A stretch of 8,224 nt of DNA from a virus, in IMG/VR virus record IMGVR_UViG_3300005099_000176; one strand, written 5' to 3'. Under the pieces are notes generated by a model. It worked only from the letters and a program-made list of their open reading frames with translations, did no database searches and had not been told where the DNA came from. Made by a program: the position numbers and the translations under genes. Position 1 is the first letter of the stretch; the number at the start of each line of letters is the position of its first letter. Shown piece after piece: positions 1 to 8,224 of this stretch.

Positions 1-91
1 GCAAAAATCGACTCCGCCGGCGCAAATTAAATTCGGTCGATCACAGATTTACCGGATTTTGTCGGACCTCTCGAGCGAGCCTAGAACGGAA
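1..91. repeat. Terminal direct repeat, copy 1 (identical to 8134..8224); circular-genome overlap
   Basis: Base-by-base comparison: 1..91 equals 8134..8224 with no mismatch. It contains the rep stop codon (81..83). Confidence 0.95.
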
Positions 92-1565
92 CAAATCTAT
101 CCATGAGACCCGCCAAGTACTCAACCACGGCCGCATGGCCTCCAGACTCCGCGCGCTCCAGGAGAATCTGGCGAACATCGGCTTTCTGATGCAGGACGCA
201 ACGCCATTGCGTCGCCGTGATGCGGACCAGCTCGGCGGCGTCGTCGGCCTCCTCCTCGGCAATCTCTTCGTCCGACACCTGGACAATACCGAAAAGCTCC
301 TTGAGACCGTCCGACCAGATGATTTGCCGCTTGCCGAAAAACGCCTTCGCAAAGACCACGAACAGCGCACCGAAGCGCTTGTGCGAGCCGTCCGCACTTC
401 CGTCGTGATACAGCCTAAGCAAGTCGAAAGGAGTCAGGCTTTTAGCCTGGCCTACCTTGCTATGTTGCTTTGCCATCTCGGAGCCGACACCCCAACGCGG
501 CTCACGCCCGAACTTAGCGACGTACTCGGCGGCAGACTCCATGACGACGACGTTGACGCCCCTGGCCCTGTTCGGCAAGGGAAGGCCAGCAGCCAGGCAA
601 GCGGCACGCCACAAGGCGAACAGCTCGGACCGGAGTTGCCGCAGCCTGGTATCGGATAAGGGCTTCGAAGTCAGCCAAAGGGAATGCTCATGAGGATGCC
701 AGCCGTTAGAATCGCCGTAAGTGACCTCCAGGGCACGAACGTTACCAACATGGCCCATCCGCTGGACTAGCTCACGATAGGCCCTCTGGCGGCGCATACG
801 TGCCCTTGCGTCGGAAAAACGAGCCAGCCAGTCGGCCAGATCGTCGGAACGCTTGTGCGAAGTGGTCAAAGTAATCATGTACAGGCCACCACCTTGCTTC
901 TTGTGCAAGTCCGTCGCCTGGACGACCTCGTTTTTCCGACGCTCCGACACCTTGACGGCGCAAGGCGGACATGTCCATACAGACCCGCACACCATCAAGC
1001 CGCCGAAATGGGCCTTCTTCATCGAAGGGGAATACAAGACGGAAACCTCTGCCCCGACCTTGCGCCGGATGCAGCCCGAAACCCGCCATTGCGTGCCGCG
1101 AGGTGTTACCTCATTGGCAAGTAAGCGCCCTGCGCTGGACTGAGCACTGAGCCGGTTAGCACGAGCGTTCAAAACCGAGAATTCGGACGGGGTTTGAACG
1201 ACGAGTTGGCGGGACCTTGGATGAACCGTAAGTCTTTGAATTTCCCCGGTTTTTTCGTCTAAAACCTCGGTAAATCCGGCTCGTGATTCCGTGTTGTTAC
1301 CAAGGCCCTGCACCACCACCCCGCCCGCCCCCGCTTGCGCGTGGTCAGGCGTGGCGGCGGCACGGGCTTCGCGCTCCAGGCGGCGAACGTAAGCAGGGAA
1401 TCCCTTGGGTTCAAGAAGAGGCGGGGTTGCATCACGAGTCTCGCGATGACGTTGCATTGCTGCAACGTTTGACGCTTCCTGCTCGCGTCCAAATGCGAGT
1501 TTGCGCCGCAGTGTTTGAAGCTCTTGGCCCGTGTAGGGCTTGACTTCTGCTTTTTTATCCAACAA
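81..1565 (-). CDS. Rolling-circle replication initiator, HUH superfamily (pC194/pUB110 Rep_1-like motifs) with a long N-terminal extension
   Basis: The open frame runs 81..1628. Motifs read from the translation: YMITLTT (motif 1), WHPHEHSLW (HUH motif 2), AAEYVAKFG (catalytic Tyr motif 3), and the Cys cluster CGSVWTCPPCAVKVSERR that precedes motif 1 in Rep_1-type proteins. Start chosen at TTG 1565 because AGGAG lies at 1576..1580. The track start at 1628 is also TTG, has no SD sequence, and would place a hairpin/T9 element inside the gene. The start is uncertain (candidates 1628, 1568, 1565, 1562, 1457). Confidence 0.8.
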   Translation of the reverse strand: MLDKKAEVKPYTGQELQTLRRKLAFGREQEASNVAAMQRHRETRDATPPLLEPKGFPAYVRRLEREARAAATPDHAQAGAGGVVVQGLGNNTESRAGFTEVLDEKTGEIQRLTVHPRSRQLVVQTPSEFSVLNARANRLSAQSSAGRLLANEVTPRGTQWRVSGCIRRKVGAEVSVLYSPSMKKAHFGGLMVCGSVWTCPPCAVKVSERRKNEVVQATDLHKKQGGGLYMITLTTSHKRSDDLADWLARFSDARARMRRQRAYRELVQRMGHVGNVRALEVTYGDSNGWHPHEHSLWLTSKPLSDTRLRQLRSELFALWRAACLAAGLPLPNRARGVNVVVMESAAEYVAKFGREPRWGVGSEMAKQHSKVGQAKSLTPFDLLRLYHDGSADGSHKRFGALFVVFAKAFFGKRQIIWSDGLKELFGIVQVSDEEIAEEEADDAAELVRITATQWRCVLHQKADVRQILLERAESGGHAAVVEYLAGLMDRFVPF

Positions 1566-1610
1566 AATTTGCTCACTCCTACTACTTAGCCGTGGACGGA
1601 GAACAGCTAC

Positions 1611-1645
1611 AGAGGGGCCGGACTGCAATCCGGTCCTTTTTTTTT
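1611..1645 (+). terminator. Intrinsic-terminator-like hairpin plus T9, oriented on the plus strand (antisense to rep)
   Basis: An 8-bp stem, 1615..1622 (GGGCCGGA) paired with 1629..1636 (TCCGGTCC, one G-T wobble), and a 6-nt loop, followed directly by nine T (1637..1645). On the minus strand it reads A9 then hairpin with no following T-run. It could instead be an ssDNA origin or packaging hairpin. Confidence 0.4.
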
Positions 1646-1712: not shown

Positions 1713-1742
1713 ACTGTAAAACGTGTCAATGGGCATTGTCAA
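1713..1742 (-). promoter_or_regulatory. Candidate rep promoter (minus strand): TTGACA, 18-nt spacer, TACAGT
   Basis: On the minus strand, TTGACA is the complement of 1737..1742 and TACAGT is the complement of 1713..1718. The geometry matches the candidate promoter at 7769..7798 (TTGACA-18-TACATT). It overlaps the operator-like palindrome. The -10 matches only 4/6. Confidence 0.35.
1724..1741. promoter_or_regulatory. Operator-like palindrome O2: TGTCAATGGGCATTGTCA
   Basis: 17/18 identical to the reverse complement of the perfect palindrome at 7793..7810. It lies in non-coding DNA upstream of rep. Confidence 0.7.
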
Positions 1743-1760
1743 AGCCACTGTTGCCAACAC

Positions 1761-1870
1761 GCGCTCTGTAGGAGCGCTTTGGATGCCGGGGGTTCGCCCT
1801 TCGGGCTCCCTCGCTATTCGCTCGGCTTGAGCCGCCCCCGTTCCTCTGTTCGGGCTCAGTCGGGGCGGTC
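1761..1870. other. Cluster of GC-rich hairpins in the large intergenic region (candidate ori or packaging-signal region)
   Basis: GCGCTC-TGTAG-GAGCGC (1761..1777). GCCC-TTCG-GGC tetraloop-like hairpin (1796..1806). CCGCCCC (1832..1838) pairs with GGGGCGG (1862..1868), which competes with TGAGCC (1828..1833) pairing with GGCTCA (1853..1858). There is no credible ORF here. Confidence 0.4.
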
Positions 1871-1900: not shown

Positions 1901-2194
1901 TTAGCGTGGACGCAACAGACGATCACGCAGAATTTTCTCGGCGGCCTCACCCATCGTGACGGGCTTGCTGTCGGCATTCTTCCTGGCGACATAAGCGCGC
2001 AAGGCGTCAGCAACCTCCTTCGGCAACTTAATCGTGACAATCTCCAGGCCCTGGGCGGCGTCCCTAGCCCGCTGTTCACGCTTACGAGCCGCAGCAGCTG
2101 CTTTCAGCGACTTCTCATCTTGCGGCCTGGTAGGCGGTCGACCTGGACGCTTCGGTACACCAGGCAACTCGGAAGTAACATCGTCCTTACGCAT
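1901..2194 (-). CDS. Small basic DNA-binding protein, probable ribbon-helix-helix (CopG/Arc/ParG-like) regulator with a disordered Arg/Pro-rich N-terminal tail
   Basis: 97 aa. ATG at 2194 is preceded by GGAG (7-nt spacing). The C-terminal half reads as an RHH: beta strand IVTIKLPK, helix EVADALRAYVARK, helix TMGEAAEKILRDRLL. The N-terminus carries KRPGRPPTRP and RKREQRARD. Confidence 0.6.
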   Translation of the reverse strand: MRKDDVTSELPGVPKRPGRPPTRPQDEKSLKAAAAARKREQRARDAAQGLEIVTIKLPKEVADALRAYVARKNADSKPVTMGEAAEKILRDRLLRPR

Positions 2195-2348
2195 TGAGCT
2201 TCTCCACCACCGAATTCAACGCCTGCATCTCGGCACGCTCATCGTCAGAAATTGGCGACCGAACGTCCCACGCTTTCAATTCGGATGCGCGCATAAGTAA
2301 CGCCAAACGAATATGCCGCACTTCATCAGCTGTCAGTTCGATAGTCAT
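2187..2348 (-). CDS. Hypothetical 53-aa acidic helical protein, translationally coupled to the downstream RHH gene
   Basis: Hand translation: MTIELTADEVRHIRLALLMRASELKAWDVRSPISDDERAEMQALNSVVEKLNA. ATG at 2348 is preceded by AGGGGGA. The stop TAA (2187..2189) overlaps the next ATG (2194) by 8 nt. It falls below the ORF-track size cut-off. Confidence 0.5.
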   Translation of the reverse strand: MTIELTADEVRHIRLALLMRASELKAWDVRSPISDDERAEMQALNSVVEKLNA

Positions 2349-2372
2349 AGATCCCCCTGTGAAAGAACCTTT

Positions 2373-2420
2373 ATTATACGTGACTTGTCACAAGAACGGG
2401 AGTATTTTTTGTGACTTGTC
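2373..2420 (-). promoter_or_regulatory. Candidate promoter/operator of the 53-aa/RHH module: perfect -10 TATAAT flanked by GTGACTTGTC repeats
   Basis: On the minus strand, TATAAT is the complement of 2373..2378, about 25 nt upstream of the ATG at 2348. The palindrome GTGACTTGTCAC (2380..2391) abuts it. A second GTGACTTGTC lies at 2411..2420, 31 bp away (about three helical turns). No good -35 hexamer. Confidence 0.45.
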
Positions 2421-2436
2421 CGATAAATTTATAGGC

Positions 2437-3690
2437 CTATTCAGGAACAACGCGAGCCGACAGGATTAGAACCAGGTCCGTTTTACTGTTCGTCCCTTCC
2501 TGATTCCTCCAGGTCTTCGGCAGGAACGAGAAGCCCGCATCCCCACTGGAAGACTTTGCATCGTCCAGGCCGCCAATCACCAACACTTGACCGTCCGCCA
2601 CTGAGACCGACGTTTTAACCTGACGCTTGACCAGGGTAGGCGAGCCAGAGACCCCCGTCTTAGTCGCCTGGAAGGACGACACCTGACCGTCAACCAGGAG
2701 GGAAAGACGACCGGACCCAAGGACTTTAGGCAGTACGTCCAGAATCACACCGGAGGGGCGATACACAACGTTCTGGATTGGGTTGCCGACCTGGTCACGG
2801 CTGCTACTGGCGATAGTGGGAGTCTCATCACCGACCGACAGCGAAAGCCTCTCAGCGTCGTCACCCACCACGCGGGAGTTAGAAACCTGACGGAACCGAC
2901 CATCACCGGCCAACGCCTGAAGCACCAGGTCATACCGGCCAGCCCTGACCGAGAACCGCCCATCACCAGGCTCAATGGACACGCCGCCCAGGCGATCAGC
3001 CACAGCATCGGCCACCAGGGAAAGACCACGTGCATTCGTGCCGGTAGTCGTGACCTCGACAAAGGACGCCGACACTTCCACGACAGACGCCGGGACGTCC
3101 AGCTGCTCGACCAGGTCACGCACGGAATCAGCCTGATCCTCCAGGACCGAGACCACCAGGCGAGATCCGCCACCGGACACAGCGACGGGCGCACCGTAGA
3201 CCGTGTTAAGCACCTCAACCACGAAAGGGACCGCCCGATTCTTGAGCGTCAAGACCTGTACCTTCTTCTCAGCCTGGGGAGCTTGGACAACAGCAGGTTC
3301 CTCAACTGCTAGACCAGGTGCGGCCGGCGCCAGAGGTGCGGCCAATGCCGGCGACTCCGAGACCAGGGGCATTGACCCGCCGACAGGTGCAGGCTCCAGG
3401 AAGAAGATCGAACCACGCTCCACCGCCCTGATCCCGTGCGCCTGCAGCACGTTCTCAACGAAGCCAGGCACGGCAGACAACTCGATAGCCTTAACGTTGA
3501 CCGTAATCTTCTTCCCGCTGTTGACCAGGTCACTAGAAACCACGAAGTCACGACCAAGCAGGTTGCCATATGCGACCTTCGCGAAGTCCATCAACGGAAC
3601 CGCTGTGAAATTAAAAGCCACCGGCTCCGACCGGGCCGAAGACGCAAACACGCAAAAAGACACAAACAGGGACACAAACAAGCGCTTCAT
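2437..3690 (-). CDS. Phage-encoded outer-membrane secretin (pIV/GspD family)
   Basis: 417 aa. N-terminal signal peptide MKRLFVSLFVSFCVFASSARSEP. N0-like domain (NFTAVPLMDFAKVAYGNLLGRDFVV...KITVNVK). Ala/Pro linker. C-terminal secretin signature (GQVLVIGGLDD...FSFLPKTWRN...TDLVLILSARVV). The ATG (3690..3688) overlaps the upstream TGA (3689..3687) as ATGA. Confidence 0.85.
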   Translation of the reverse strand: MKRLFVSLFVSFCVFASSARSEPVAFNFTAVPLMDFAKVAYGNLLGRDFVVSSDLVNSGKKITVNVKAIELSAVPGFVENVLQAHGIRAVERGSIFFLEPAPVGGSMPLVSESPALAAPLAPAAPGLAVEEPAVVQAPQAEKKVQVLTLKNRAVPFVVEVLNTVYGAPVAVSGGGSRLVVSVLEDQADSVRDLVEQLDVPASVVEVSASFVEVTTTGTNARGLSLVADAVADRLGGVSIEPGDGRFSVRAGRYDLVLQALAGDGRFRQVSNSRVVGDDAERLSLSVGDETPTIASSSRDQVGNPIQNVVYRPSGVILDVLPKVLGSGRLSLLVDGQVSSFQATKTGVSGSPTLVKRQVKTSVSVADGQVLVIGGLDDAKSSSGDAGFSFLPKTWRNQEGTNSKTDLVLILSARVVPE

Positions 3691-4847
3691 TTCTGAACTC
3701 CCGACACTTCGATATTGCCCTCAAGGACAGCCGACCAACGACCGTCCCCATGCGTGCTAAACGAGACAGGCGTCTCGATACGTCCATCCTCCAGGAAGAT
3801 CAACACCCCGGACGAGCGACGCAAGAAACCGAGCGCCCCTGTGGGCTTGTCATGAACCTTGCCGATTGCCTTGACCGGCGATGGAGTGGGAGGGGGATCA
3901 GATGGCAGCAGGAAGGAACCACCCAGGCCAAGGCAAACGCCGAGGGCCAAAGCAAGAGCGAGAAACTTTGTCATGTGTGGATGCGGAGGCTTGAGAGGTA
4001 ACGCCCGAGGCTTGACCAAAACTAGATCGCCATGCCCAGGAAGGATAGGACCCTGCACGCCGTCAGGAAGCCCGATGCGGGCCGACAGATGCCAGGCCGA
4101 GAGCAAGCAGTGTGTGCCGTGCGGGTAGGTCTCCGAGAAGACCTGTGTCGTGTTGTAGGCGTCGTGCAGATCGTCGCCCTTGAATATCCAGCGATCAGCA
4201 ACCAGGGCGTCAGGGTTCGACCCCAAGCGGACGACAGCAACGTGCACCTTCGGCAGATTGCCCGACACGGCCCCGGCAGTCACGGCGGACACCAGGCCGG
4301 AGACGACGGGCACCTTCATGCGGTCCAACCTGGTCAAGCGGACCACGTACTCAAACAGGGACTCGCGTAGCTGCTTGTCCGCCTGGTTGATGTTCTGCAT
4401 GATGAAGAAGATATCCCAGCCATACTTACGCGCATGGATCATCCACTCCAGCAGTTCGGCCCTCCCCTTCTCAGAAAAGTTCCTGGTGTTGAGCCAAGAG
4501 CCGCATTCGTCCAGGACTAAAGCGCCGTTGTGCGCCTCATCGAAACCACGCAACATCACCGGCGACTTGATCGGTGCCGAACCCTTCCAGCCATCGACCG
4601 TATGCACCAGGTTAGGTTCAAAGGAGACGAACCGATTGCCGCTACCGATCATGTACAGGTCGGCGGCGCTAGGCTTGTCCGGGATGCGGATGACCGAAGC
4701 CGTCGACCGCTCGTCGGCCATGTGCTCCAGGAAGACGTCGCAGTTCGTAGCGACGCGCTTCCCCGCCCGCAGGTATTCGCGCAGCTTTTGCATACCGGCT
4801 TTGCCCTTGCCCGCACCGAGCTTGCCAGTGATCGCGTAGACGGCCAT
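3687..4847 (-). CDS. Zot/pI-like morphogenesis ATPase (inner-membrane assembly protein)
   Basis: Walker A sits at the N-terminus (MAVYAITGKLGAGKGK). Walker B is ALVLDECGSW. There is a single C-proximal TM segment, FLALALALGVCLGLGGSFLL. Start taken at ATG 4847, which overlaps the pVI-like stop (TAATG); the track ORF extends to 4925 but places 26 aa ahead of the P-loop, which is atypical. Confidence 0.85.
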   Translation of the reverse strand: MAVYAITGKLGAGKGKAGMQKLREYLRAGKRVATNCDVFLEHMADERSTASVIRIPDKPSAADLYMIGSGNRFVSFEPNLVHTVDGWKGSAPIKSPVMLRGFDEAHNGALVLDECGSWLNTRNFSEKGRAELLEWMIHARKYGWDIFFIMQNINQADKQLRESLFEYVVRLTRLDRMKVPVVSGLVSAVTAGAVSGNLPKVHVAVVRLGSNPDALVADRWIFKGDDLHDAYNTTQVFSETYPHGTHCLLSAWHLSARIGLPDGVQGPILPGHGDLVLVKPRALPLKPPHPHMTKFLALALALGVCLGLGGSFLLPSDPPPTPSPVKAIGKVHDKPTGALGFLRRSSGVLIFLEDGRIETPVSFSTHGDGRWSAVLEGNIEVSGVQK

Positions 4848-5185
4848 TACATTTTCACGATCATGTTGATGGCCTGCTTTTTGATCACGTACAACTGGCA
4901 CACGATCCAGACCGAGATGTAGCACCCGACGGCGGACAACGTGACCGTGTTAAACGCGATGCCCAGGCCCATAGCAACGGCCTGGTGAGCTTGAGCCATG
5001 CCGGAGATGGACGCCGCACACACGCCGGATACACACGACATCATCGCGGTGAACAAGGCCACGCCGAGCGACAACGCGACGGACCAGGCGGCGAGCCTTG
5101 CCGCTTTCTCCAGGACAAAGAAGCGGGCAAACAGTTTCAGGGCGACCGAGAACAGGCCGCCGAGGAAGGTAGCGAGTAAAGGCAT
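4847..5185 (-). CDS. pVI-like hydrophobic minor virion protein
   Basis: 112 aa with several hydrophobic segments. It sits between the pIII-like and pI-like genes, as gene VI does in Ff phages. GAGGA lies 7 nt upstream of the ATG at 5185. Confidence 0.65.
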   Translation of the reverse strand: MPLLATFLGGLFSVALKLFARFFVLEKAARLAAWSVALSLGVALFTAMMSCVSGVCAASISGMAQAHQAVAMGLGIAFNTVTLSAVGCYISVWIVCQLYVIKKQAINMIVKM

Positions 5186-5188
5186 GGG

Positions 5189-6640
5189 TTATGTCCTCAT
5201 TGCTGTTTGCACCTGGTGCACACAGCCCAGGACGCAGAAAAAGGCGATGACGCCGGAAATGAACAAGCTGAAGGTATCGACCGCCCCACAGATCGGGACG
5301 TTAATCATCTGCCCGGTAATCGGGATCGGGACCTGCGGATTGATGCAGGCGGCTGTCGGAACGATCGGGAACCAGTTCTTGAGCCCAATCGAATCCTCCG
5401 TGATGGCGTCGACAGCAGCCATGCCTTTGTCATTCTGTTCCTTCACCTGGTTGATTTCAGCCTCACCATCCGGCGTGGGCGCAGTGATAGGGCCGAACGC
5501 CGTTCGCAATACCTCCAAGATCGACCGCTGCGTCACTTCCTTGTTGTAGTCCTTCGGAATCTCCAGGGGCGGCGTCTCAGGAGGCGGAGACGGTACAACG
5601 ACGACTTCCCGAATGATCGTGGTGTTATTGGTGACGTTGTTGGTCGTAGTCGTGACGCGCTCGACAGTCGACGGAAAGGTAATCTGAGGATTGTTGACAG
5701 TCGCGCCAGGCTTGATAGTCGGCGTGACGGTAGGCGACTCCGTGACCTTCTCAGTTGAAGTACTACCGTCAGCGTTGGTAATCGTCCTGGTAGAGACTTC
5801 AGCAGCCGGAAGCGTGACCGCCTGCGTGTTTGGCATCGACACAGGCGCATTGCGTAGGTCGAGCGGATACGTACCAGGTGTTATCTCCGGGTTCACCGAA
5901 GGATCGAGACCCATGATGTTGTTATAGAGGCTGGGAATCCGACTAGGACTACTAGCCGTCGCCGCCTCAGTCGCAGTAGTCGCCGTATTCTCACCGTCTA
6001 CAGAAGGCGTCGGAGGCGGCAACTGAGAAACCTTGTAGCTTCCCTGCATGACCCAACCGCAACTGACACCCGCATCCCGTCTGTAGCTCACAATCTGAAA
6101 GCCAGCCGGAACGGAACCACCGCAGCCGTGCGCCGAAGACGGCAATTCCTTGTAGACCGTGTAACCGGCTGATGAGTCGCCAGTGTAGTTACCCGGATGC
6201 GGATACGCCGGGAAATTCTGATTCGTACGCGGGACGACGCTCTCACAGACCACGGCACCAGTACCCACCGGACATGGGATCACACCCTGCGGCCGGATCA
6301 GATCCCAAATGTCCTGAGCCACCAGGGCCGCACCGACGAACGGAATGCTCCGCGCGACAATCCGACCCGCAGCCCTTGCAATCGCCGCACGATTGGCCGC
6401 AGCCTGAACGTTGACAGGGACCGACACCGCAACACCGCTTGGAATGCGAACAGTGACCGGCCCCGAAGCCGTGGCAGTAACTCCAGTACCAGTACCGGCC
6501 ACGGTAACGCCTGGCGTATTGCGAACGATCCTGTTGATGTGATCAAGCCCGGCGTAACTCGATGTGTACTGAGCCGACGCCGACCCCGCGGCCCCGAACA
6601 TTCCCAGGAAGGCCAACCCAATGACTGTATGTTTTCTCAT
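5189..6640 (-). CDS. pIII-like minor coat / host-adsorption protein
   Basis: 483 aa from ATG 6640 (the track starts at GTG 6652). Signal peptide MRKHTVIGLAFLGMFGAAGSASA. Cys-pair-containing N-terminal domains. Thr/Pro-rich linkers (PPPTPSVDGENTATTATEAATASSPS; VTPTIKPG...TTTTNNVTNNTT...PSPPPETPP). C-terminal membrane anchor FSLFISGVIAFFCVLGCV. Its position after the coat gene also fits. Confidence 0.75.
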   Translation of the reverse strand: MRKHTVIGLAFLGMFGAAGSASAQYTSSYAGLDHINRIVRNTPGVTVAGTGTGVTATASGPVTVRIPSGVAVSVPVNVQAAANRAAIARAAGRIVARSIPFVGAALVAQDIWDLIRPQGVIPCPVGTGAVVCESVVPRTNQNFPAYPHPGNYTGDSSAGYTVYKELPSSAHGCGGSVPAGFQIVSYRRDAGVSCGWVMQGSYKVSQLPPPTPSVDGENTATTATEAATASSPSRIPSLYNNIMGLDPSVNPEITPGTYPLDLRNAPVSMPNTQAVTLPAAEVSTRTITNADGSTSTEKVTESPTVTPTIKPGATVNNPQITFPSTVERVTTTTNNVTNNTTIIREVVVVPSPPPETPPLEIPKDYNKEVTQRSILEVLRTAFGPITAPTPDGEAEINQVKEQNDKGMAAVDAITEDSIGLKNWFPIVPTAACINPQVPIPITGQMINVPICGAVDTFSLFISGVIAFFCVLGCVHQVQTAMRT

Positions 6641-6652
6641 GGTCACCCGCAC

Positions 6653-6680
6653 AAATGAAAACGCCCCCGGAGGGGCGAGG
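6653..6680 (-). terminator. Rho-independent terminator downstream of the major coat protein gene
   Basis: The minus strand reads CGCCCC-TCCG-GGGGCG (stem 6662..6667 with 6672..6677), followed by TTTTCATTT. It starts about 20 nt after the coat stop codon (6700..6702). Ff phages have a terminator at the analogous position after gene VIII. Confidence 0.7.
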
Positions 6681-6699: not shown

Positions 6700-6933
6700 T
6701 TACTTCGCAGCGCCGAACGATTTCTTCATCATGCGGATGCCCCAGAAGCCACCAGCGACCAGGACGGCCACGGTGAAGGCTGCGCCGATGTAGGACGTAG
6801 CCTTCGCACCGAGTTCAGTGATGGCGTCGACGCCAGGGTCACCACCTTGAGCCATCGCGTGGCCTGCGGTCACCAGGGCCAGAGCCGGGATCGCCGAGAC
6901 TTTCAGGGCTGCTTTTTTCATTGCTGCATTCAT
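6700..6933 (-). CDS. Major coat protein (pVIII-like) precursor
   Basis: 77 aa from ATG 6933 (AGAGAAAACC lies upstream). Signal peptide MNAAMKKAALKVSAIPALALVTAGHAMA with an AxA cleavage motif. The predicted 49-aa mature protein has an acidic N-terminus (QGGDPGVDAITE), a hydrophobic core (YIGAAFTVAVLVAGGFWGI) and a basic C-terminus (RMMKKSFGAAK). The track's start at 6981 is an unsupported TTG. Confidence 0.85.
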   Translation of the reverse strand: MNAAMKKAALKVSAIPALALVTAGHAMAQGGDPGVDAITELGAKATSYIGAAFTVAVLVAGGFWGIRMMKKSFGAAK

Positions 6934-6999
6934 GGTTTTCTCTTTCAGAAGATCGGCGTTAATAGAATCCAGGGTTGCCAACGCCTGGAAGCAAAGAAT

Positions 7000-7226: not shown

Positions 7227-7300
7227 TCGTGATTCCTGAAAAGCACCACCACCAGGAGGACCAAGGCGGCGACAACGGCGAGCAAGTCAGCGATATTCAC
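7223..7300 (-). CDS. Tiny hydrophobic protein, 25 aa (GTG start)
   Basis: (M)NIADLLAVVAALVLLVVVLFRNHE. GTG (7300..7298) overlaps the preceding TGA (7299..7297) as GTGA, and its own TGA overlaps the next ATG. It is very short and has a non-ATG start, so confidence is lower. Confidence 0.4.
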   Translation of the reverse strand: MNIADLLAVVAALVLLVVVLFRNHE

Positions 7301-7383
7301 CGCTGTTGTCCCGCGATCCAGCCGAGGGCGAAACAGCAGACGACGGCAACGCCTAACAAAACTTCAGGCGTGACGGCTTCCAT
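7297..7383 (-). CDS. Tiny hydrophobic protein, 28 aa
   Basis: MEAVTPEVLLGVAVVCCFALGWIAGQQR. The ATG (7383..7381) overlaps the TAA of the upstream 105-aa gene (TAATG). Single TM-like segment. Confidence 0.5.
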   Translation of the reverse strand: MEAVTPEVLLGVAVVCCFALGWIAGQQR

Positions 7384-7700
7384 TACGCAGCCTTAGCGAG
7401 AGGGAAAATTTTCGGGGTAGAGAGGAACTTGAAGCCGACGACAGTAGCCGCAAGAGCGTTGCCCTTGCCTGGACGCATCTTTACATCGACCTCGAACAGG
7501 GACGGCAGATCGTGAGCCATCAGGGATGCGAAGACTTCAGGCTCAACCATGACCTTCATGGGCTTGCAGCCTTTTTCTTTATCGCTGGCGACGCGGTAAT
7601 CGTTGGACATCCAGACCTGGTGCAATTTCTGGACTTCGCCGGTTTGGCTATCAGGAATTTCGTACTTATCGCACGAGAGAATGAGGGCGGTATCAGCCAT
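7383..7700 (-). CDS. First gene of the structural operon; candidate ssDNA-binding protein (gV analogue), assigned by position and size only
   Basis: 105 aa. AGGA lies 6 nt upstream of the ATG at 7700. The sequence looks beta-rich (LILSCDKYEI, KVMVEPEVF, LFEVDVKMRPGKGNALAATVVGFKFL). It occupies the gene V slot, immediately before the tiny hydrophobic ORFs and the coat gene. I recognise no sequence motif. Confidence 0.45.
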   Translation of the reverse strand: MADTALILSCDKYEIPDSQTGEVQKLHQVWMSNDYRVASDKEKGCKPMKVMVEPEVFASLMAHDLPSLFEVDVKMRPGKGNALAATVVGFKFLSTPKIFPLAKAA

Positions 7701-7768
7701 GTTGTTTCCTTGTGGTAATTGGTGAGTTTGTCAGTCAGACCGCACCAAACCCCGGCCTGATGTCCGAG

Positions 7769-7798
7769 AATGTATCTCTCAATGTTTACCGCTGTCAA
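7769..7798 (-). promoter_or_regulatory. Candidate promoter of the structural/assembly operon: TTGACA, 18-nt spacer, TACATT
   Basis: On the minus strand, TTGACA is the complement of 7793..7798 (inside the palindrome) and TACATT is the complement of 7769..7774. This is about 70 nt upstream of the ATG at 7700. Confidence 0.45.
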
Positions 7799-7810
7799 TG
7801 CCCATTGACA
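7793..7810. promoter_or_regulatory. Operator-like perfect palindrome O1: TGTCAATG-CC-CATTGACA
   Basis: Perfect 8-2-8 inverted repeat. It ends 10 nt before the repressor ATG (7821) and overlaps the -35 of the divergent minus-strand promoter. A second copy lies at 1724..1741. Confidence 0.75.
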
Positions 7811-7820
7811 TGCACCAAGA

Positions 7821-8099
7821 ATGAAAACAACACTCGACTACTTGAACGAGGTCATCAAAAGACGCGGAGATATCGGAAATGACAACCAGCTCGCCCTATA
7901 CCTGGGAATCACCAGACAAGCCGTGCACCAGTACAAGAACGGCCAAAACATGTCCGTCCTGGTAGCCATCAAAGTAGCTCGATGCCTGTGCATTGAGCCG
8001 GTGGAAACGGTATCGGCCACCCTATACGCCCAAGCGAAAAGCGAGGATGAAAAACAGTTCTGGAAGGAACTCTACGAGGAGGCCACCCACCGAATTTAA
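7821..8099 (+). CDS. Cro/CI-type helix-turn-helix transcriptional repressor
   Basis: 92 aa. Canonical HTH NQLALYLGITRQAVHQYKNGQ. It is the only plus-strand gene, is divergent from the structural operon, and sits next to the palindromic operator. The SD is weak (AAGA), so the transcript may be short-leadered or leaderless. Confidence 0.8.
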   Translation: MKTTLDYLNEVIKRRGDIGNDNQLALYLGITRQAVHQYKNGQNMSVLVAIKVARCLCIEPVETVSATLYAQAKSEDEKQFWKELYEEATHRI

Positions 8100-8170
8100 T
8101 TCGACCTGGTCAACTGGAAAAACGCTCTCGAGCGCAAAAATCGACTCCGCCGGCGCAAATTAAATTCGGT
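8089..8170. repeat. 13-bp perfect inverted repeat (ACCGAATTTAATT ... AATTAAATTCGGT) enclosing 56 nt in the convergent repressor/rep intergenic region
   Basis: Arms lie at 8089..8101 (including the repressor TAA stop) and 8158..8170 (the same bases as 25..37). The loop holds a small CGCT-CTCG-AGCG hairpin (8123..8134) flanked by A5 on both sides, which reads T5-hairpin-T5 on the minus strand. Confidence 0.6.
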
Positions 8171-8224
8171 CGATCACAGATTTACCGGATTTTGTCGGAC
8201 CTCTCGAGCGAGCCTAGAACGGAA
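8134..8224. repeat. Terminal direct repeat, copy 2 (identical to 1..91); circular-genome overlap
   Basis: Exact 91-bp identity with the window start. It re-presents the last codons of rep (stop at 8214..8216). Confidence 0.95.

Follow-up and report, generated by a model that had tools for sequence, protein, structure and literature searches.

We consider it likely that this phage is controlled by a dimeric repressor of the Cro/CI type that uses two 18-bp operators, O1 and O2, and that competes at them with sigma-70 for the -35 hexamers of two promoters, P1 and P2. We infer the binding, the dimer stoichiometry, the transcription starts and the sign of the regulation from the sequence. What results is a concrete regulatory map (two operators, two promoters and one repressor) for a clade of uncultured filamentous phages known from metagenomes only, in which a single small repressor probably couples the control of replication to virion production. 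The existing understanding of phage repressor action is left unchanged, this being an ordinary kind of phage switch.

The window, i.e., the whole stretch of 8,224 nt that was analysed, begins and ends with the same sequence (1..91 is identical to 8134..8224), and because of this exact 91-bp terminal overlap it can be taken as a circular, complete genome of ~8,133 bp. Judging from the small circular genome and the presence of the inovirus gene set (matches to Rep_1, Phage_coatGP8, Zot and Secretin in Pfam/PHROG searches), it is the complete circular genome of a filamentous phage (inovirus) of ~8.13 kb. The minus strand carries all the large genes, the 92-aa ORF being the sole protein gene on the plus strand. 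The genes are:

7821..8099, plus strand: gene of the 92-aa Cro/CI-type HTH repressor (ORF list, PHROG, Pfam)
7700..7383, minus strand: 105-aa ORF, first gene past P1, in the gV (ssDNA-binding protein) slot (position only)
6981..6700, minus strand: major coat protein (Pfam Phage_coatGP8)
6652..5189, minus strand: ORF in the pIII slot (position)
5185..4847, minus strand: pVI-like ORF (PHROG 17485 / 1944 'minor head protein'; weak Pfam DUF5455)
4925..3687, minus strand: Zot/pI ATPase (Pfam Zot)
3690..2437, minus strand: pIV secretin (Pfam Secretin)
2348..2187 and 2194..1901, minus strand: two small ORFs of 53 aa and 97 aa (ORF list)
1628..81, minus strand: Rep, a Rep_1-family rolling-circle replication initiator (Pfam Rep_1, 1.6e-11; PHROG 11698, 1.7e-74)

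The ORF in the gV slot had no Pfam or PHROG match, and ORFs of 105-114 aa are syntenic with it in related contigs. The leader sequences indicate that the true start of Rep is probably a TTG near 1565, behind the SD AGGAG. Where the window ends join, the repressor gene (stop at 8099) and Rep (stop at 81 = 8214) run toward each other. When the whole window was compared with GenBank phages by Megablast, nothing matched. By Rep protein it comes closest to an uncultured record, 'Phage blackswan219-6' (47% identity), and to Pseudomonas phage PMBT54 (35%). No relatives were found in a single-protein scan of IMG/VR, nor in a profile scan of 185,579 reference genomes, hence no integrated prophage copies; no integrase was seen in this genome either.

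The operators and their predicted promoters are:

7793..7810, unstranded: O1, perfect 8-2-8 palindrome TGTCAATG-CC-CATTGACA (sequence, repeat search)
7769..7798, minus strand: predicted P1, -35 TTGACA at 7798..7793, 18-nt spacer, -10 TACATT at 7774..7769 (consensus scan)
1724..1741, unstranded: O2, upstream of Rep (mismatch-tolerant 18-mer search)
1713..1742, minus strand: predicted P2 for Rep, -35 TTGACA at 1742..1737, 18-nt spacer, -10 TACAGT at 1718..1713 (consensus scan, 10/12)

O1 reads TGTCAATGCCCATTGACA, with 8-nt arms that are perfectly complementary around a non-symmetric CC centre, and 10 nt (7811..7820) separate its end from the ATG at 7821 of the 92-aa ORF. The sequence and the repeat search thus bear out what the preliminary description had claimed of this palindrome and of its distance from the ATG. 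It had also derived a minus-strand promoter, TTGACA-18-TACATT, from one half of the palindrome, and the consensus scan returned the same promoter independently. P1 matches the sigma-70 consensus, which we assume to apply in the host, at 10/12 positions. Its -35 is the left (promoter-proximal) half of O1 read on the minus strand, and transcription would start near 7762. The O1 palindrome alone is not significant, because the window has two inverted repeats with perfect 8+8 arms and a gap of 0-6 (O1 and another at 1449..1468), compared to a mean of 1.07 over 200 Markov-1 simulations. What indicates that it is a real element is its second copy, its conservation in relatives and the covariation between protein and operator.

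The second copy was missed in the preliminary description, which dealt with the operator at the structural operon. O2 lies at the Rep promoter, reads TGACAATGCCCATTGACA on the minus strand and has one mismatch with respect to O1. The chance expectation for such a copy was 0 in 200 shuffles, and the 18-mer is present at these two sites and nowhere else in the window. O1 and O2 are separate sites ~2 kb apart on the circle and, because the flanks of the two copies are unrelated, they represent a repeated site and not a duplicated segment. The -35 of P2 arises from the conserved mismatch in the promoter-distal half of O2, and the P2 start would be near 1706. The scan of the whole window gave only two minus-strand sigma-70-like sites, each overlapping one of the two palindromes. 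Minus-strand TTGACA occurs three times in the 8.2 kb, always inside O1 or O2, where all four half-sites are located too.

For the comparison we used ~18 non-redundant related metagenomic contigs carrying repressor homologues (58-78% identical), with 16 relatives in the O1 alignment. The inovirus contigs among them share the synteny, with the gV-slot ORF leftward and the repressor rightward, followed by Rep, the small RHH ORF, in some cases a secretin, and Zot. No locus lacked O1: the distance from its end to the MKTT/MRTT start codon was 9-12 nt, and the dyad was perfect in all loci except L025 (one arm position) and L030 (position 16). In the alignment the arms are invariant except for one co-varying pair (14/16 arm positions invariant), whereas the 2-nt centre varies (CC, GC, AC), and it is because the arms are fixed while the centre varies that O1 reads as the operator of a dimer. 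The -10 of P1 was TACATT, or TATATT in four loci, at a spacing of 17-18 nt. All loci that extend far enough to cover the region upstream of Rep had O2 there, always with the same single deviation (plus strand CATTGTCA), by which the coding-strand TTGTCA becomes a perfect -35 TTGACA. The -10 of P2 was TACAGT, TAGAGT or TAAAGT, always located 5 nt past the palindrome. At both sites, then, the operators overlap a TTGACA -35 with -10 partners at 17-18 nt, as judged by consensus matches. The TGTCAATG palindrome was absent from the nearest GenBank records, PMBT54 and 'Phage blackswan219-6', and upstream of gp24 of Burkholderia phiE12-2 there was merely a loose TGTCAAT-containing repeat and no copy of the operator.

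Two contigs depart from this synteny. In L021 (2206..2514) and L022 (1034..1342) an HTH gene (P0029, 63% identical) is accompanied by O1 and by a divergent TTGACA-18-TAAATT promoter over a different backbone, with a TraH-like 509-aa ORF and no Rep_1 match, which suggests that repressor and operator form a portable module.

The 92-aa protein matched PHROG 4441 'HTH DNA binding protein' (2.1e-15) and Pfam HTH_3 (20.4 bits, E 5e-4, just under the gathering score of 23). Its AF2 model (pLDDT 95.7) has six helices, with the HTH at residues 21-39 (helices 21-28 and 32-39). The top PDB folds in Foldseek were 434 Cro (the best), C.AhdI, the 434 repressor N-terminal domain and HigA, with C.BclI also among the matches; the probabilities of the top matches were 0.99-1.0 but their E-values were weak (~0.1). 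Among solved structures the best match by sequence was the dimeric repressor CylR2. All of these (434 Cro, C.AhdI, 434 repressor, HigA and CylR2) are dimeric dyad-binding HTH proteins. The earlier assignment of the neighbouring ORF as an HTH protein of the repressor type is therefore upheld by PHROG 4441, the near-threshold HTH_3 match and the 434-Cro-like model. An exact-sequence look-up found nothing on record, and tblastn against 50,697 phage records (E <= 1e-3) recovered only Burkholderia P2-like phages and one uncultured inovirus. In metagenomes we found 30 homologues that were 59-78% identical. In them the N-terminal MKTT is invariant, and so is the recognition region ITRQAxxQYKxGQNMSV except for position 42. 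Codons 3-4 of the repressor gene showed synonymous changes in three loci, which together with the invariant MKTT indicates that the ATG at 7821 is the true translated start.

The link between this protein and the palindrome comes from the one variable position. Repressors with R instead of Q at position 42 are of only two types, P0026-like (L003 and L004) and P0028 (L025), and these three loci are also the only ones with the symmetric change T7C/A12G in O1. In the first set of loci it was found solely in L003 and L004, where O1 reads TGTCAACGnnCGTTGACA. The locus of P0028 was retrieved to test the prediction, and its O1 (TGTCAACGGCTGTTGACA) has C7 and G12 as predicted, while sister proteins with Q42 (L020) have the T7 operator. 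O2 of L003 has the T7C/A12G change in one half only. The AF2 model places residue 42 in the loop that follows the recognition helix, and it is from the corresponding loop of the 434 repressor that Arg43 reaches inner base pairs of the operator in their complex. By analogy, a change from Gln to Arg paired with a change from T:A to C:G at an inner position is plausible and chemically reasonable. The covariation in the three loci probably goes back to one event in the evolution of one clade. The natural specificity pair (Q42 with T7, R42 with C7) is usable for studying immunity divergence or as a source of orthogonal parts.

The mechanism that we propose is that the 92-aa protein would bind as a dimer to O1 (7793..7810) and O2 (1724..1741), each half-site (CATTGACA) holding the -35 consensus TTGACA. 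At P1, with a start near 7762, the operator would extend from ~-48 to -31 (centre -39.5) and its promoter-proximal half would be the -35, and at P2, with a start near 1706, it would extend from ~-35 to -18 (centre -26.5), with the promoter-distal half as the -35. At P1 as at P2, six base pairs would be required by the repressor and by sigma region 4 alike. P1 would drive the gV-slot gene, the coat genes and the assembly genes and P2 would drive Rep, and the bound repressor would shut off replication and virion production together. The perfect dyad of O1, as opposed to the conserved imperfect one of O2, suggests that O1 may be filled before O2, with a graded occupancy. The palindrome was also considered as two back-to-back -35 hexamers, a reason that we rejected: it accounts for no more than 12 of the 16 arm positions, the plus strand offers no -10 partner, and the two TTGACA of O2 are on the same strand.

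How much of the genome P1 would serve had been overstated. P1 would drive the gV, coat and assembly genes, as had been proposed earlier, but the 'whole' operon overreaches, because the Rep promoter is separate, the ORFs at 2348..1901 have a TATAAT-type promoter of their own with a different palindrome, and there is a terminator-like hairpin at 6677..6662. This hairpin (CGCCCCTCCGGGGGCG, minus strand), which is rich in G+C and has a T-run behind it, is located directly 3' of the major coat gene, the usual attenuator site of inoviruses, and because of this position the genes past the coat gene probably reach lower expression from P1 than gV and coat do.

Repression at P1 is less certain than at P2, as the centre of O1, ~-39.5 from the P1 start, is close to the class II activator position (-41.5). 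The protein might thus be an activator or timing controller at O1, like the R-M C proteins or lambda CI at PRM, and repress only at O2. The presence of the controller proteins C.AhdI and C.BclI among the fold matches, and the difference of 13 bp between the registers of O1 and O2 relative to their promoters, would fit such a role. We find it unlikely, however, given that P1 already has a perfect TTGACA -35 and a 4/6 -10 while activator-dependent promoters usually lack a good -35. Furthermore, since the operator half-site and the -35 hexamer coincide in these six bases, sigma region 4 and the protein would clash, and at O2 (centre ~-26.5) repression alone is sterically plausible. A different possibility is that the palindrome acts as a hairpin in the phage ssDNA or in RNA, as a minus-strand origin, a packaging signal or a leader hairpin before the repressor start. 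Here the two sites behave differently: the ssDNA of O1 folds at -5.6 to -5.8 kcal/mol (z ~-3), whereas O2, with its universally conserved arm mismatch, folds at -1.7 kcal/mol (z ~0), no better than shuffles. Inoviruses are known to use ssDNA hairpins, which fits, and base pairing survives the T7C/A12G double change of L003, L004 and L025, compatible with a preserved hairpin, but the change in one arm of O2 in L003 breaks the pair. Besides, 14/16 arm positions are fixed in sequence and not merely complementary, and the coincidence with -35 and -10 at both sites and the link to residue 42 would be left unexplained. Because O2 does not fold, we reject the hairpin as the main explanation and regard it as very unlikely.

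The palindromes could also be bound by a host regulator or by the 97-aa ribbon-helix-helix protein of the phage, the 92-aa HTH protein having its targets elsewhere. The 97-aa ORF (2194..1901, PHROG 536 'transcriptional regulator') does provide a second putative DNA-binding protein, the connection of the 92-aa protein to the site is indirect, and some filamentous-phage repressors, such as ORF15 of phiRSM, mainly affect host genes (PMC3816273). Nevertheless, the C7/G12 variant of the operator goes with the amino acid at position 42 of the HTH protein, the HTH gene has moved jointly with O1 into the different backbone of L021 and L022, and the palindrome GTGAC-WW-GTCAC, upstream of the operon of the RHH gene, would be a more natural RHH target. 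As for the host, no LexA-type box CTGT-N8-ACAG (the gamma/beta-proteobacterial type, with <=1 mismatch) was present anywhere in the window. The chance that another factor is the one that binds the palindromes appears to us very small, and we retain the competition of the 92-aa repressor with sigma-70 at both operators.

The system would then work like the known small repressors of filamentous phages, but with a different layout (two simple dyads, two promoters) and without sequence homology to RstR or Pf4r. RstR of CTXphi is described in PMC4762005 as having three sites in the rstR-rstA region, repressing the phage genes and autoregulating, and according to the title of a work cited there it forms tetrameric complexes. 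Shared with RstR are the Cro/CI-superfamily HTH without a protease domain, the position of the gene opposite to the main genes and the sites in a compact divergent region. In CTXphi, though, repressor gene and replication gene (rstA) diverge and the phage genes depend on one promoter, whereas here the repressor gene is located between Rep and the gV slot, convergent on Rep and divergent from the gV-slot gene. Replication is here under a second, separate operator, with two simple 18-bp dyads ~2 kb apart, and there is no LexA box for SOS co-repression. No Vibrio phage was matched by tblastn (E <= 1e-3). Pf4r (repressor C of the Pseudomonas phage Pf4) binds as a dimer to motifs over direct and inverted repeats beside its own gene and confers immunity (PMC8402870). 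It is likewise a small filamentous-phage repressor with repeated motifs in the intergenic region next to its own gene, but in Pf4, an integrated prophage, there is an excisionase/integrase switch (xisF4), the motif and the number of sites differ, and tblastn detected no sequence similarity.

FpsR of the Shewanella phage SW1 is a reverse-oriented 13-kDa Cro/CI-like HTH protein without a protease domain that binds the promoter of the replication gene and did not bind its own promoter region (PMC4762005). In SW1 the promoters face each other with long overlapping 5' UTRs and eight genes form one operon from the fpsA promoter, in contrast to at least two operator-controlled promoters here. The genomic slot of a reverse-oriented regulator gene is shared with ORF15 of the Ralstonia phages phiRSM1 and phiRSM3, located between the replication and ssDNA-binding-protein genes (PMC3816273), and with ORF2 of PMBT54, a phage thought to be episomal that has the same Rep/gV slot and an omega-like RHH gene before Rep (PMC10534721). 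PMBT54, the closest cultured relative by Rep (35%), has in common with our phage this RHH gene and a phage-encoded secretin, but its slot gene is non-homologous, being annotated as a MatP_C-domain protein and not as an HTH. The phiRSM phages carry in addition a serine recombinase, and no operators are defined for phiRSM or PMBT54. With the Cro and CI proteins of the lambdoid phages (434, P22, lambda) there is similarity in the fold (434 Cro being the best PDB match), in the 17-18-bp dyads with fixed arms and variable centre, in the location of the operators over the -35/-10 of divergent promoters and in the residue of the loop after helix 3, which plausibly reads inner positions. What is different is the lack of a tripartite OR/OL array, of any sign of cooperative binding, of a Cro antagonist gene and of a RecA-cleavable C-terminal domain, and the presence of two operators and two promoters in an ssDNA phage.

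For the repressor gene itself, no candidate promoter was convincing. Already in the preliminary description no conventional plus-strand promoter or strong SD was seen for it, and the promoter scan and the candidates that we tried lead to the same result. The scan reported no plus-strand sigma-70-like site in 7300..8224, the 10 nt before the ATG (caccaaga) hold only AAGA and no proper Shine-Dalgarno, and a conserved sigma-70-type promoter was not found in the window and its relatives. The right half of O1 (TTGACA) with AACACT 17/18 nt away recurs in relatives but lies inside the ORF, and was rejected because codons 1-4 are translated, as the synonymous changes indicate. With TTTACC-18-CATGCA, transcription would begin at 7821 itself, the A of the ATG, so that the mRNA would be leaderless and the centre of O1 would fall near -19.5, a location that resembles that of OR3 at lambda PRM; the -10 of this candidate is poor and not conserved. 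The hexamer GAGAAT (7766..7771), conserved and -10-like on the strand opposite to the P1 -10 that it overlies, has no -35 partner, and a weak promoter site ~93 nt upstream of O1, found in some relatives, is poor in the window. Since O1 ends 10 nt from the start codon, the promoter must overlap or precede O1, and on these geometric grounds negative autoregulation is likely.

The intergenic region contains another conserved block, AGACCGCACCAAACCCCGGCC at 7739..7759, within which CCGCnCCAA...CCGG (7742..7757) is invariant in the 16 relatives. It is located just downstream of the inferred P1 start and at the -35 position for GAGAAT. A 5'-UTR element, an activator site for the repressor gene or a replication/packaging signal are possibilities for it.

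Upstream of the 53-aa and 97-aa ORFs there is a second family of palindromes. In their minus-strand promoter region (2370..2425) GTGAC-WW-GTCAC (2380..2391) lies directly against a perfect TATAAT, and GACAAGTCAC occurs as a direct copy ~31 nt upstream of it; L006, L007 and L008 have two full palindromes of this type 30-31 bp apart. Another regulator probably uses this palindrome as its operator; the most natural candidate is the 97-aa protein (2194..1901), whose homologues have a weak PF10723 RepB-RCR_reg match.

A candidate countertranscript of ~70 nt was detected on the plus strand (1540..1645), antisense to the leader and start of Rep. Its promoter, TTGACT-17-CAAAAT (1540..1568), is invariant in all relatives, and it consists of two stem-loops followed by an intrinsic terminator with T9 (hairpin 1611..1640). 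RNAalifold with 15 loci gave 19 pairs, of which six show compensatory changes, as well as many G-U pairs that can form on the plus strand only, and the Rfam search, in which the countertranscript was included, found no family at the gathering threshold. It would be complementary to the leader and ribosome-binding site of the rep mRNA. Antisense RNAs of such kind are found in rolling-circle plasmids, e.g., RNAII of pMV158.

More speculatively, the pair of operators could be one layer of a plasmid-like control of an episomal phage in three layers, i.e., the repressor with a high-affinity perfect site at the morphogenesis promoter and an imperfect one at Rep, the ~70-nt antisense countertranscript against the rep leader, and the RHH protein with GTGAC-WW-GTCAC. 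Together they might set copy number and virion output without integration, with a non-canonical promoter for the repressor gene (possibly leaderless or activator-dependent) and Q42R/C7 as a switch of immunity specificity. We offer this scheme as a tentative one, which may well prove wrong.

Two further structures border the Rep gene and its operator. Just upstream of O2 on the minus strand (1745..1790), between the stop of the 97-aa ORF and O2, there is a hairpin AGCGCTC-CTACA-GAGCGC. Its stem differs in relatives (GCGGTC/GACCGC, CCGCCC/GGGCGG, GCGCCC/GGGCGC), with the pairing and a CTCCA-like loop kept, and it could be the terminator of the small-ORF transcript or an origin/nick-site hairpin. 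At the other end, where the repressor and Rep genes converge, 8089..8170 contains a perfect inverted repeat of 13 nt (ACCGAATTTAATT / AATTAAATTCGGT) whose arms are 56 nt apart. It overlaps the stop codon of the repressor gene, and its possible roles are those of a bidirectional terminator, an origin or a site of recombination. In addition, CTCTCGAGCG is repeated at 8125 and 8201.
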